A DNA stretch of 54,793 nt from an uncultured bacterium (GTDB taxonomy: Bacteria; Patescibacteriota; Microgenomatia; UBA1400; CG1-02-47-37), in NCBI GenBank assembly GCA_963980215.1, contig CAXBYZ010000004.1, positions 1 to 54,793 of the forward strand, read 5' to 3'. Under the pieces are notes generated by a model. The model did not search any database, was not told the DNA's origin, and saw nothing but the letters and a program-made list of their open reading frames with translations. Position numbers and translations under genes: made by a program. This document shows, piece after piece, positions 22,562-52,150 of this stretch (the first letter of the stretch is position 1; each line of letters begins with the position of its first letter).

Positions 22562-22584
22562 ATTTAAGGTTCGGAACCTTAAAT
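22562..22584. repeat. family-I extended singlet overlapping the stop codon of ORF 22579-24222
   Basis: ATTTAAGGTTC-G-GAACCTTAAAT, identical to 23034-23056. Confidence 0.9.
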
Positions 22585-24222
22585 AATTTTGTCATTTCTA
22601 ATAAACTTTTGTAGTTCTTTTTCTGAGTAGTGGCGGACTTTATATTTGAGGATTTTAGTGGTGGAGAGCTTGGGGTTGTGGGGGTGGACGACTATAACGG
22701 AGCCGCCAATTTGCTTCATGAGCTTTCGTTTAGCGGGAAGGTTTGGGGTGTGGGCGGAGACGGCAAGAATGTCAGGTCTAATTTTTTTTAGTAATTTTAG
22801 GTGATCAGTTGGGTTATCAAATTTTTCTGGGAGAGAGAAAATTTGATCGGCAATCCCCCACTTTTTTAGGTTTTTAATTCTGGTGTTTATGGGGTTAATG
22901 GGGCGGTTTTTGCCTTTGAGTTTTTTGACCCGGACGTCTGTTTCGAGGCCGACTAAAAGGATGTTTGGTGATACACCTCCGAGGTGCACCGCAGGTGCAA
23001 CCTCACCTCGGAGGTGGTGAGATTGGGGTGAAAATTTAAGGTTCGGAACCTTAAATTTTTTGGCGGCTTTGAGAAATTTTTTGTGTTCCTCATGAAGAAC
23101 GTCGAAGCAGCCGGTGATGAGGATTTTGGTAGACATTGAAGGTTCCGAACTAGCCTCGACATTCGTCGAGGTCGTCCCGATTAAATCGGAACTGGAAGTT
23201 CGGAACCCTACACCTTTAAGGACTGTCCTTAGCTTGGCTTTGTATTCCTTTATAACTATTTTGCCGGTGGGACGAGGGTGAAAAAAGGCAGAGTGAAGGG
23301 TGACTTTTTCGTTGGTGATTTTTTTCTTCATGTAAGCATATTGAAGCTTGAAGGCGAGGAGGTTGAGATAGTTCAATACAGAAGGTTCGGAACTAGCTCC
23401 GGTGTTCACCGGAGTTGCAAGATTACTTGCTGAAGTTCCGAACCAACGAGGCTTGGTGGTTTTATCTTCTGTTAAGAACTGTTCTTGTAGGGCGTTTTTG
23501 GGTAGTGCATTGGGTAAGAATTTTTTGACCCAAGAGTTTGTAGAGATAAATTTTTCGTAAGTTTGGTCTTTATTGTAAAGGGGTTTGATTTGGCAAACTT
23601 CGTGAGCAGTGTAGAGATTGCGGCGAGATTTAGGTATAGAAATGGATGATTCTTCTAAGAAAAGGTTGAGGCAGATGGCATTCTCGGGTCCGAGTACGGA
23701 CTCGAGTCCTTTAAGGTCCGGCCTTAAAGGAGTACCTTCAAGAACGGACCTTTTTTGAGGACGACGACGGAGGTGAAAGATTTCTAGGAGAGGAATAACC
23801 AACAAGCGAGTCAACCAAAGACGGTTGGTGGTGGTGACAATCATAAGATCGATGTCGTCGTTTTTGTCTGAGTTGTTCATGGCTAAGGCTCCGGTGACGG
23901 CAATTAATTTAACTGAAGGGATAGCACTTAAAATTTTAGATATTTTTTTAGCTTTAGTTAACTTTAATTGACTAAAGTGATGGCGAGATTTGCGGATCTT
24001 GGCAAGATGGGAGCGGTTTGGGAGGTGGTAATAATTGGAGGTTTTCCCAATCAAAGGTTCCGAACTGCCTTTCGCTTTGCTGCAGGTTGCTGAAAGTTCG
24101 GAACCAACGAGTCCTGAAAGAACGGACCTTTTATCTGAAATTAGCCATTTAATTATCTCTTTCTTGGTTAGAGGATAGTCGAAAATATCGGCATAAGCGA
24201 GAGTTTTTAAGATGGCTTCCAT
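22579..24222 (-). CDS. fusion of a Pol-beta-like nucleotidyltransferase domain and a cytidylyltransferase-like domain, with many palindromic insertions
   Basis: N-part 'AVTGALA...DDIDL'; C-part 'ITGCFDVLHEEH...LVGLETD..VKKLKG.NRP'. Confidence 0.72.
   Translation of the reverse strand: MEAILKTLAYADIFDYPLTKKEIIKWLISDKRSVLSGLVGSELSATCSKAKGSSEPLIGKTSNYYHLPNRSHLAKIRKSRHHFSQLKLTKAKKISKILSAIPSVKLIAVTGALAMNNSDKNDDIDLMIVTTTNRLWLTRLLVIPLLEIFHLRRRPQKRSVLEGTPLRPDLKGLESVLGPENAICLNLFLEESSISIPKSRRNLYTAHEVCQIKPLYNKDQTYEKFISTNSWVKKFLPNALPKNALQEQFLTEDKTTKPRWFGTSASNLATPVNTGASSEPSVLNYLNLLAFKLQYAYMKKKITNEKVTLHSAFFHPRPTGKIVIKEYKAKLRTVLKGVGFRTSSSDLIGTTSTNVEASSEPSMSTKILITGCFDVLHEEHKKFLKAAKKFKVPNLKFSPQSHHLRGEVAPAVHLGGVSPNILLVGLETDVRVKKLKGKNRPINPINTRIKNLKKWGIADQIFSLPEKFDNPTDHLKLLKKIRPDILAVSAHTPNLPAKRKLMKQIGGSVIVVHPHNPKLSTTKILKYKVRHYSEKELQKFIRNDKII
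22974..23016 (+). repeat. family-III doublet (CACCT-CCG-AGGTG ... CACCT-CGG-AGGTG)
   Basis: Same architecture as family I with a different stem; inner hairpin GCACC-gca-GGTGC; encodes HLRGEVAPAVHLGG. Confidence 0.85.
23031..23059. repeat. family-I extended singlet, intragenic
   Basis: AAAATTTAAGGTTC-G-GAACCTTAAATTTT (14-bp perfect arms); encodes KFKVPNLKF. Confidence 0.92.
23139..23207 (+). repeat. family-I doublet with two inner hairpins at the domain junction
   Basis: AAGGTTCCGAAC-ta-GCCTCGAC.attc.GTCGAGGT-cgtc-CCGATT.a.AATCGG-aactgga-AGTTCGGAACC. Confidence 0.92.
23217..23231. repeat. family-IV triloop hairpin (TAAGGA-CTG-TCCTTA); a variant AAGAA-CTG-TTCTT lies at 23474-23486
   Basis: Perfect stems with a CTG loop, each next to a family-I doublet. 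Confidence 0.55.
23382..23444 (+). repeat. family-I doublet with two inner hairpins (loop order swapped)
   Basis: AAGGTTCGGAAC-ta-GCTCCGGTG.tt.CACCGGAGT-t-GCAAG.atta.CTTGC-tga-AGTTCCGAACC. Confidence 0.92.
23684..23752 (+). repeat. family-II composite element (69 bp)
   Basis: TCGGGTCCG-agta-CGGACTCGA hairpin plus the 40-mer AAGGTCCGGCCTTAAAGGAGTACCTTCAAGAACGGACCTT (23713-23752). Confidence 0.93.
24054..24130 (+). repeat. family-I subtype A doublet (24054-24105) plus an internally deleted family-II remnant (24108-24130)
   Basis: AAGGTTCCGAAC-tgcctttcgctttgctgcaggttgctgaa-AGTTCGGAACC, then CGAGTCCT-ga-AAGAACGGACCTT. Confidence 0.9.
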
Positions 24223-51405: not shown

Positions 51406-51432
51406 ACATGAAGGTTACGAACCTTCATGTAG
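51406..51432 (+). repeat. RAYT-flanking palindrome (3' of the gene)
   Basis: ACATGAAGGTT-ACG-AACCTTCATGT-AG; identical to 52124-52150. Confidence 0.95.
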
Positions 51433-51435
51433 AAA

Positions 51436-52062
51436 CTATTCTAAGGATAGCTTTGTAAGTTTTTGGGCTATATTTTCTTTGGTGGGGGAGGAAAGAAAAC
51501 TTGAATAATTCTTGGTTAGTTTTAAGACATATTCCGGATACAGCCAGTCTGTGGGATCGGTTTTTTTAAGATATTCTGGTAGAGAAGAATATGAGGTTTT
51601 GTGGAGATGAATGTATTTTGAGAGTTGCAATAACTGTTCACTGGAATCAACAACTACATTTTTGTAGCGACCCTGGAAGATAGCGCCGGAATGTTTGTGA
51701 TGGCTTTGAAAGTACATGGCATAGGTAATCATTAATCTTCGCATAAGATTAGAAATGTTGGTTTTATTGTCTGCAGTGGGCATGGGTTTTAAAATGAAGT
51801 GAAAGTGGTTGGGCATGAGACAGTAGGCAACAATTCTAACGGAGTCAACATGAAGGTTACGAACCTTACTGTAGGGTTTTTGGACGGTGTCTTTGTAGGA
51901 GAAATATTTGGCAGTAGGGAATTTTAGGTAGTAGATGAGAATTTCAATGAAAGTGTCGTAATCTTTTTTGTCTTTAAAGATTTTATGTTTGTAAGCACCA
52001 CGATTAAAGATGTGATAAAAATGTTGAGGTCTGAAATTTCTATTGTAATACTCACTGGGCAT
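51436..52062 (-). mobile_element. HUH/Y1 tyrosine transposase, REP-associated (RAYT, IS200-like Y1_Tnp)
   Basis: 'FYHIFNRG', 'AYCLMPNHFH' (HUH), 'GAIFQGRYK', 'YIH', 'YSS'; palindromes on both sides; no tnpB. Confidence 0.9.
51848..51874 (+). repeat. palindrome copy inside the RAYT coding sequence
   Basis: ACATGAAGGTTACGAACCTTACTGTAG, identical to 52078-52104; encodes YSKVRNLHV. Confidence 0.93.
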
Positions 52063-52077
52063 TAATTTAAGTATAGC

Positions 52078-52150
52078 ACATGAAGGTTACGAACCTTACT
52101 GTAGCGCGAGGGCTTGGGGTGTTACATGAAGGTTACGAACCTTCATGTAG
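52078..52150 (+). repeat. two tandem RAYT-flanking palindromes (5' of the gene)
   Basis: 52078-52104 and 52124-52150; the second supplies the TAA of ORF 52133-52474. Confidence 0.95.

Follow-up and report, generated by a model that had tools for sequence, protein, structure and literature searches.

The 54,793-nt stretch analyzed here (the window; positions 1 to 54,793 of contig CAXBYZ010000004.1, assembly GCA_963980215.1, forward strand) comes from an uncultured bacterium of the Patescibacteriota and carries, at 51406–52150, a gene for a Y1/HUH tyrosine-transposase-like enzyme that is flanked by copies of a short DNA hairpin and contains a further copy within its own coding sequence. By sequence comparison, this locus belongs to a large family of Y1 genes in Patescibacteria in which hairpins inside the gene are a conserved, phase-locked and co-varying element of the architecture. 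The reading that we favor, with moderate confidence, is that the locus is a REPtron-like unit whose private hairpin also sits in frame at fixed sites, and that the hairpin copies are rewritten by an enzyme-linked process. REPtrons are reportedly tnpAREP genes, also called genes for REP-associated tyrosine transposases (RAYTs), flanked by cognate repetitive extragenic palindromic (REP) sequences.

The features of the locus, in window coordinates, are as follows.

51406–51432: outer (P-type) hairpin, about 4–5 nt past the stop codon, with a perfect stem of 11 bp around a 3-nt loop; it has the same sequence as the copy at 52124.
51436–52062, minus strand: gene of 208 amino acids for the Y1/HUH tyrosine-transposase-like protein, assigned from its open reading frame (ORF), Pfam, NCBIfam, an AlphaFold (AF2) model and Foldseek.
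51613–51615, minus strand: putative catalytic Tyr150 in the motif Y-I-H, the usual N-P after it being absent; Y150, I151 and H152 are conserved in 110 relatives.
51799–51807, minus strand: codons of the HUH motif H86-F87-H88, invariant or nearly so in 110 relatives.
51848–51874: inner (I-type) hairpin over codons 63–72 (site A), identical to the copy at 52078; this type has two genome copies only.
52070–52078, minus strand: TGCTATACT, a candidate extended −10-like element by motif, its end 7 nt before the ATG.
52078–52104: inner (I-type) hairpin next to the −10-like element on its upstream side, at the place of a −35 box, ending 16 nt before the ATG.
52124–52150: outer (P-type) hairpin with a perfect stem of 12 bp; it occupies the stretch 62–88 nt before the ATG.

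A first-pass annotation, made from the sequence of the window alone, had described four 27-mers in the same orientation that form two identical pairs, with one copy inside the gene, and sequence search recovered all of this. Exact copies of the 27-mer bracket the locus at 51406–51432 and 52124–52150, and the same 27-mer with 2 mismatches recurs at 51848–51874 and 52078–52104, these two inner copies being identical to each other; no match was expected from 100 shuffles. All four lie in plus-strand orientation, with an ACG loop and a TGTAG end; GTAG forms the 3′ end on the plus strand, and on the gene strand CTAC stands at the 5′ side. The sole long ORF at the locus is the intact 208-amino-acid gene. 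Read along the gene strand, the locus has in turn a perfect hairpin (−87), an imperfect hairpin (−35), the ATG, an imperfect hairpin in codons 63–72, the stop codon and a perfect hairpin. The internal copy starts with the last base of codon 63, ends with the second base of codon 72 and encodes the peptide P-Y-S-K-V-R-N-L-H-V. Folded as single-stranded DNA (ssDNA), the outer pair forms perfect 11–12-bp stems (−10.2 and −10.6 kcal/mol; z about −6.8), whereas the inner pair forms a 6-bp stem followed by a 2×2 internal loop and three further pairs (−4.2 and −5.3 kcal/mol; z of −1.75 and −2.06).

Relatives of the window protein were found at an E value of ≤1e−20 in 28 of 41 searched genomes of the same order, often with 5–17 per genome. 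All matches were retained, giving 131 loci (16 in the window's own genome, G000, and 115 elsewhere). Sharing of a hairpin was scored as an exact 13-mer on either strand, as 10-mers were too noisy (common to 44% of cross-locus pairs). The upstream flank shared a 13-mer with the downstream flank of its own locus in 103 of 131 cases, compared with 274 of 17030 cross-locus pairs. Likewise, the coding interior shared a 13-mer with its own flanks at 84 of the 131 loci, while only 541 of 17030 cross-locus pairs (about 3%) did so. With a stricter, perfect-stem criterion, an internal hairpin matched a flank at 55 loci and in 210 of the 17030 cross-locus pairs. A wider and largely independent sample, built from one genome per species across Patescibacteria, contributed 67 new loci from records titled, among others, Candidatus Beckwith-, Woese-, Davies-, Gottesman-, Chisholm-, Collier- and Saccharibacteria. 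In this sample the two flanks shared a 13-mer in 46 of 67 loci and the interior shared one with a flank in 32, all 32 of them at amino acids 50–71 or 150–167.

The internal hairpins are confined to a few places in the protein. The 73 matched internal hairpins map to residues 60, 63 and 68 of the window protein (37 hairpins, site A), to residue 154 (34, site B) and to residue 172 (2). Site A precedes the HUH strands and site B follows the helix of the catalytic tyrosine. Codon phase is constant in 37 of 37 cases at site A and in 33 of 36 at site B. Across the 131 loci, 26 carry a copy at site A only, 27 at site B only, 28 at both, 3 elsewhere and 47 at neither. An unascertained pairing test, centered on the codon aligned with R68 of the window protein, which was chosen without looking for hairpins, and covering distances 2–11, gave Watson-Crick pairs at 178 of 210 positions in 21 clade members, compared with 26–79 of 210 at shifted centers. 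At least 7 of 10 pairs were formed in 19 of the 21 members, with many different stem sequences, and the two exceptions are the most distant members.

The state of each site is inherited. On a quick maximum-likelihood tree of 128 proteins, the presence of a copy at site A requires 13 changes, compared with 40.4 for shuffled labels (minimum 33), and that at site B likewise requires 13, compared with 41.6. All members of a well-supported clade of 16 proteins carry site A. The window locus itself has an ortholog in another species of the genus (genome G001), with 81% protein identity and 77% DNA identity over 1015 nt; the two loci are syntenic, with both neighboring genes conserved. The ortholog has the same four hairpins, including the same imperfection. 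Indeed, the two species have one and the same I-type 27-mer at both places despite 77% overall DNA identity, and the perfect pair has T as its outermost stem base in both G000 copies and C in both G001 copies. A test for module exchange at the internal hairpin gave a correlation of 0.44 between N-terminal and C-terminal identity in 120 clade pairs, with no clear recombinant. Comparison of these sequences shows the internal copies to be old, inherited and evolving in concert with those in the flanks of their own locus. An ancient in-frame colonization of the variable site-A segment is possible.

The first-pass annotation had taken the internal copy for a self-insertion event at this locus, and this part of its reading did not hold, as the ortholog shares the four hairpins and the imperfection, and 19 of 21 clade members have a hairpin at the homologous codon. 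The shared hairpins and the inheritance on the tree therefore effectively exclude a recent self-insertion, and it is the concerted evolution that needs explaining. That the enzyme's current end recently entered its own gene at the window locus is, for us, barely credible, even though the two inner copies agree over all 27 nt and the one in the gene lies in the variable segment before the HUH strands. The hairpins at the homologous codon differ in sequence among clade members.

The constraint on the internal hairpins is shown by these comparisons to act at the level of nucleotide sequence and not of the encoded peptide. At 15 loci with perfect copies at both internal sites, a single hairpin is read in two reading frames and encodes unrelated peptides. 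Among 323 related gene pairs, which are not independent of each other, amino acid identity was lower in the hairpin codons than in the rest of the gene (0.51 vs 0.65), while third-position identity was higher (0.61 vs 0.46). In two AF2 models, the hairpin-encoded segments are the least confident interior blocks and lie between core elements.

Several lines of sequence and model evidence support the window protein as an intact Y1/HUH enzyme of the RAYT-like kind. It matches the Pfam family Y1_Tnp (PF01797) at 35 bits, above the gathering cutoff of 23, and the NCBIfam equivalog for REP-associated tyrosine transposases (REP_Tyr_transpos, NF047646) at 37.6 bits, far below its cutoff of 80. The same RAYT model matches 108 of 110 relatives at an E value of ≤0.001 (best, 5.5e−18), and the NCBIfam IS200 model matches 1 of 110. 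The AF2 model of the window protein, built from the alignment of these 110 relatives (one locus with an internal stop was omitted), reached a predicted local distance difference test score of 91.4. With this model, Foldseek gave a probability of 1.00 to TnpA of ISDra2, TnpA of IS608 and the Escherichia coli RAYT; the highest template-modeling score was to 4er8, in which the E. coli REP-associated transposase binds a REP hairpin, and the IS200/IS605 TnpA structures among the matches were 2xqc, 2vjv and 2a6m. A single-sequence search of solved structures with the window protein gave no match, and a profile search returned ISDra2 TnpA alone (E value of 0.005). The consensus of the 110 relatives includes HUH, FQ and Y-I-H-x-N-P. 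The window protein reads Y-I-H-L-H-K, the N-P of Y-I-H-L-N-P and the following 9–14 residues being gone, as they are also in its ortholog. The segment missing at residues 150–160 of the window protein coincides with the place of the site-B hairpin in other clades.

The genome of the window (820 kb in 45 contigs, 39% G+C, 99.97% complete) holds 16 intact Y1 genes, all above the Pfam cutoff. The closest paralog of the window protein has 68% identity, and there are no near-identical copies. Each paralog clusters on the tree with copies from related genomes. In a perfect-stem scan, most of these genes have their own distinct hairpin about 35–50 nt upstream and again at or just after the stop codon, many also carry it within the coding sequence, and the flanking hairpin of every paralog differs from those of the others. 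Hairpins of the form AAGGTT-NNN-AACCTT occur at 29 sites in the genome, among them about 5300, 22565, 23037 and 40499 in the window, mostly with CCG or CGG loops. This ATTTAAGG family with CCG or CGG loops belongs to a sibling Y1 gene (C14:5515–6159), which has copies upstream, at codon 62 and at the stop codon.

These results bear on most of what had been proposed in the first-pass annotation. The 29 sites bear out its remark that the dispersed copies have mostly CCG or CGG loops, and a sibling gene flanked by such hairpins, for which it had suggested a search of the genome, exists. It had offered two origins for the CCG copies, as older or as belonging to a sibling, and the second is the one that stands; greater age is not needed, because the family belongs to the sibling gene. 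Its view of the hairpins as the cognate ends of the enzyme agrees with the sequence data, in that the set is private, each paralog has a different flanking hairpin and the family occurs, among the 41 genomes searched, in the three genomes of the genus only, so that the hairpins are probably cognate. The palindromes that it had asked to be compared at homologous loci are present, with shared flanks at 103 of 131, and the multiple identical insertion sequence copies that it had named as a contrary outcome were not found, the best paralog having 68% identity.

Three observations on sibling loci may be added. Hairpins of the C14 type, with a CGG loop on the plus strand, lie at 23031–23059 and about 22562–22584 of the window; one copy is in frame at about residue 390 of a 547-amino-acid ORF (22579–24222, minus strand), and the other is at the 3′ end of that ORF. 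A Y1 paralog with one in-frame TGA (L125, contig C17 of genome G003) has retained hairpins at sites A and B as well as upstream and at the stop codon. In G001, a 160-amino-acid, 5′-truncated Y1 remnant (L054, contig C44, oriented gene 980–1462) has homology that opens with residue 63, precisely where the site-A hairpin lies, and stops at the downstream hairpin. The remnant could be either a deletion from the upstream to the internal hairpin or a partial copy.

Copies of the hairpins are also found away from Y1 genes. In the three genomes of the genus, the perfect-type hairpin of the window has 6, 9 and 13 sites, and it has none in the 38 others of the 41 searched, while the imperfect (I-type) hairpin has its two copies in the genome at the locus itself. 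Other hairpin families of G000 have 0–12 extra copies each. Several housekeeping genes (loci L132–L145) contain hairpins in frame: those for cysteinyl-tRNA synthetase (CysRS), arginyl-tRNA synthetase (ArgRS), TruB (two copies), Fpg, a DegT-type aminotransferase, glycosyltransferases, a Wzy_C protein and a GHMP kinase. Those with coordinates in G000 are as follows.

C7:2142–3518: CysRS.
C15:2438–3058: TruB.
C2:22692–24437: ArgRS.
C13:4241–5122: Fpg.
C3:41841–43043: DegT family.

The hairpins in these genes encode peptides such as F-E-V-T-N-L-E or I-R-G-Y-E-P-R. Four of six slots (CysRS, both TruB slots and DegT) are unchanged in length compared with hairpin-free orthologs. One slot can carry different hairpin families in different genomes, and the slot hairpin was that of a resident Y1 locus in the same genome in all four cases compared. 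In hairpin-free CysRS orthologs, a short palindromic core is already present at the center of the later hairpin.

According to the reading that we favor, the enzyme would recognize its own hairpin as folded ssDNA, and the flanking, internal and dispersed members of a family may be repeatedly rewritten from one another by an enzyme-linked, length-keeping copy-and-replace process. The internal copies would be tolerated passengers in two peripheral, low-confidence protein segments and would not be needed for catalysis, and the same process could put hairpins into same-length slots of housekeeping genes. At the window locus, the two perfect outer copies would be the dispersing form, and the imperfect inner copies, which are restricted to the putative promoter and coding sequence of the locus, may be binding-only sites. 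That Y1 enzymes actually overwrite short stretches of ssDNA with their cognate hairpin, length being kept, at fixed slots in genes including their own, so that hairpin families also displace each other there, is a tentative proposal that we regard as doubtful. If it were true, the in-gene copies would physically tie the enzyme to its target sequence, a domesticated transposase would be carrying out a natural, sequence-programmed editing of coding DNA, and a ready library of more than 100 enzyme-hairpin specificity pairs would be available.

A number of observations weigh against the favored reading. The enzyme's link to the hairpins is, at the level of sequence, inferred by association only. 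The internal copy is absent from 47 of 131 loci, among them whole clades, and therefore the family does not need internal copies. The pairs and loci in the counts given above are related and so are not independent. About one-third of hairpin pairs have flipped loops, and template switching during replication accounts for such flips without an enzyme. The promoter discussed below rests on a motif that a two-hexamer scan did not call. The third genome of the genus (G002, 96% complete) has 13 window-type hairpins, yet no ortholog of the window enzyme was found in it with the window protein as query; either the copies may thus outlast the enzyme, or the gene is missing from the assembly. The hairpin regions of ArgRS and Fpg vary in length, with two hairpins in the ArgRS linker of G001 (L251) and an extra segment of about 20 residues that contains two hairpin-like stretches in the Fpg of G002 (L266/L278). 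Insertion with a gain in length therefore also occurs. Finally, contigs from four public sequencing runs (X5–X8) contained no joint between hairpins.

Selection offers a different account of the concerted change. The internal and promoter-proximal copies might be regulatory sites at which the enzyme binds extruded DNA and limits its own expression or acts in cis, with selection keeping the copies matched to the specificity of the enzyme; we consider this unlikely. The identity of the locus-restricted I-type pair at both places in two species, against 77% gene identity, would follow from such a role, as would the phase-locked, inherited sites and the constraint at the nucleotide level. A TGnTATA(C/T)T-like element stands right after the upstream hairpin, 14–17 nt before the ATG, in 13 of 21 clade loci, and the two hairpin-free members of the clade have TTGACA at the place of the upstream hairpin. 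These motifs suggest a leaderless-type promoter in which the hairpin may occupy the −35 position. However, a scan for two-hexamer promoters and for terminators called nothing on the gene strand and found no terminator-like T runs. Whole clades also do without internal copies, and the same hairpins are found in unrelated housekeeping genes, in which nothing points to a role of this kind. That the hairpins instead act as RNA and are conserved for mRNA stability, translation pausing or formation of the 3′ end is something we hold to be very improbable. Stem mismatches of downstream hairpins are of the wobble type on the sense strand, with 14 G.T against 3 A.C, which fits a 3′ RNA stem, but internal (6 vs 9) and upstream (8 vs 14) hairpins have no such bias. 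The lack of T runs, the absence of a match in Rfam and the variable orientation of the loops also speak against an RNA role, and the upstream copy would fall outside a leaderless transcript.

The remaining alternatives concern how the copies spread. Palindromes could be homogenized without the enzyme, through replication stalling and template switching, with the Y1 genes as mere collecting places. The loop counts are compatible with this: within a locus, the loops of the upstream and downstream hairpins are in the same orientation in 40 cases and flipped in 17, those of the upstream and internal hairpins in 37 and 19, and those of the internal and downstream hairpins in 37 and 23, and therefore the common orientation seen in the window is usual and not a rule. 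The same-length replacement in CysRS, where a short palindromic core pre-existed, and the 13 copies in G002, whose cognate enzyme went undetected, agree with it as well. Such a process nevertheless leaves unexplained why more than 100 Y1 loci each have a different private hairpin at both ends, why slot hairpins match resident Y1 loci and why cross-locus sharing is as low as about 2–3%, and we judge it improbable. Each locus might also be an ordinary mobile element of the IS200 type, the internal copies serving as alternative ends. Hairpins at both ends, mostly in the same orientation, a fold that matches TnpA of IS608 and ISDra2, and a 5′-truncated copy that begins exactly at an internal hairpin are all to be expected of such an element. 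It is made quite improbable by the lack of near-identical copies (≤68% identity), by synteny of the locus between species, by solo hairpins dispersed without a gene and by the match of 1 of 110 relatives to the IS200 model compared with 108 to the RAYT model. In addition, the tyrosine motif Y-I-H-x-N-P is not that of the IS200 type in Table 1 of Quentin et al. 2018 (PMC6006769).

REPtrons are among the described systems closest to the locus: the Y1/HUH enzyme is single-copy per type, vertically inherited and accompanied by its own palindrome family, which is also dispersed; several types coexist per genome; and enzyme and hairpin appear to co-evolve. The loci analyzed here differ from REPtrons in several respects. 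Most families lack the conserved GT[AG]G foot at the 5′ side of the hairpin, the feet of most sibling families being AT-rich. Stems are short, in most cases perfect, and closed by 3-nt loops. Copy number is low (6–13 per genome for the window family), 16 paralogs share 0.82 Mb, the equivalog cutoff of the NCBIfam RAYT model is not reached (37.6 vs 80 bits) and the hosts are Patescibacteria. In the classification of TnpAY1 proteins by Quentin et al. 2018 (PMC6006769), as given in its main text, each tnpAREP has its own REP family. Co-evolution of enzyme and REP, with two modes of recognition for bulged and perfect palindromes, is described in the part of Corneloup et al. 2021 (PMC8266576) that treats it. 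Our literature searches returned nothing relevant on REP or RAYT in the Candidate Phyla Radiation/Patescibacteria.

In-frame REPs inside tnpAREP genes are already known; the present case concerns a different subclass and sites that are fixed, phase-locked and co-varying. The main text of Quentin et al. 2018 (PMC6006769) describes such REPs as unique to subclass 2.4 and as generally located between HuH and Y in a peripheral region, and this was the only account of REPs inside tnpAREP that we found in the main texts searched. As there, the cognate palindrome here lies inside its own gene, in a peripheral variable region and with the frame kept. Subclass 2.4 differs from the present family in the position of the REPs, which here precede HUH (60–68) and follow Y (about 154), and in its motifs, WQ and YIxNNP there and FQ and YIHxNP here. 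For subclass 2.4, that text does not mention fixed sites, a set codon phase, inheritance through speciation or any co-variation between internal copies and flanks.

By motif, the family resembles subclass 2.1 of TnpAY1 (TIRYT, or group 1 of Bertels), for which Table 1 of Quentin et al. 2018 (PMC6006769) gives NH[YF]H, FQ, Y[IV]HLNP and SS and lists no REP. The shared traits are N-H-[YF]-H, F-Q, Y-[IV]-H-L-N-P and a tail with two paired serines, a length of a little over 200 amino acids and several diverged copies per genome; the likeness is one of motif alone. As far as the consulted text goes, subclass 2.1 is reported without nearby REP-like sequences, whereas here hairpins lie at both ends and inside. 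In the consulted passages of Bertels et al. 2017 (PMC5581495), group 1 is described as weakly associated with repeats. IS200/IS605 TnpA proteins share the fold, the HUH and tyrosine catalytic residues and hairpins near both gene ends, but here no copies are identical, the locus keeps a syntenic position, the tyrosine motif in the family consensus is of class 2 (NP) and not Y---Q, and no tnpB was seen in the stretches read.

Hairpins in unrelated genes also have precedents. REPs inside unrelated genes are cited in the main text of Quentin et al. 2018 (PMC6006769), and the text of Di Nocera et al. 2013 (PMC3733652) that we drew on describes intragenic REPs, including those in tRNA synthetase and repair genes, as insertions. 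The same source covers Rickettsia palindromic elements, which, like the hairpins here, lie in frame in housekeeping genes such as those for tRNA synthetases and repair proteins. The elements in that account are insertions that add 20–30 or more residues, whereas four of six slots here are unchanged in length, and here one slot holds different families in different genomes.

The spread of REP-type palindromes and their matching to tyrosine enzymes is an open question that has been studied mainly in a few Proteobacteria. One small genome of a marine bacterium supplies 16 enzyme-hairpin pairs, and well over a hundred come from its relatives. With up to four target copies beside or inside each gene, these form a naturally occurring table of specificities, open to direct tests with oligonucleotides. 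The copies inside the gene are a clean case of DNA-level constraint overriding protein sequence, and their inherited arrangement indicates that enzymes and DNA targets evolve together. The slots in essential genes indicate that part of the protein variation in these reduced genomes is imposed by repeat turnover. The family is also a possible source of new enzymes for sequence-specific binding and linking of ssDNA.

Some minor observations concern dispersed hairpins and public sequence data. A pair of window-type hairpins 860 nt apart in G002 was considered as a Y1 locus and rejected, as it brackets an unrelated gene. These hairpins (L294, contig C93, 155–177 and 1014–1036) lie within a direct repeat of about 45 nt on either side of that gene of about 230 codons, and a similar repeat end occurs at C15:17633 of G000. 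The stretch analyzed here is present in contigs of 20 marine or seawater metagenome runs, with no RNA run among those listed. Contigs from runs X5–X8 break at hairpins, their loose ends belonging to other hairpin copies. One of these contigs has a same-length but diverged skip over 51681–51786. Contigs of two independent runs (X6 and X8) track the window to 52261 with 6–7 differences and then continue into unlike sequence, which suggests a strain or species variant of the right-hand neighborhood.

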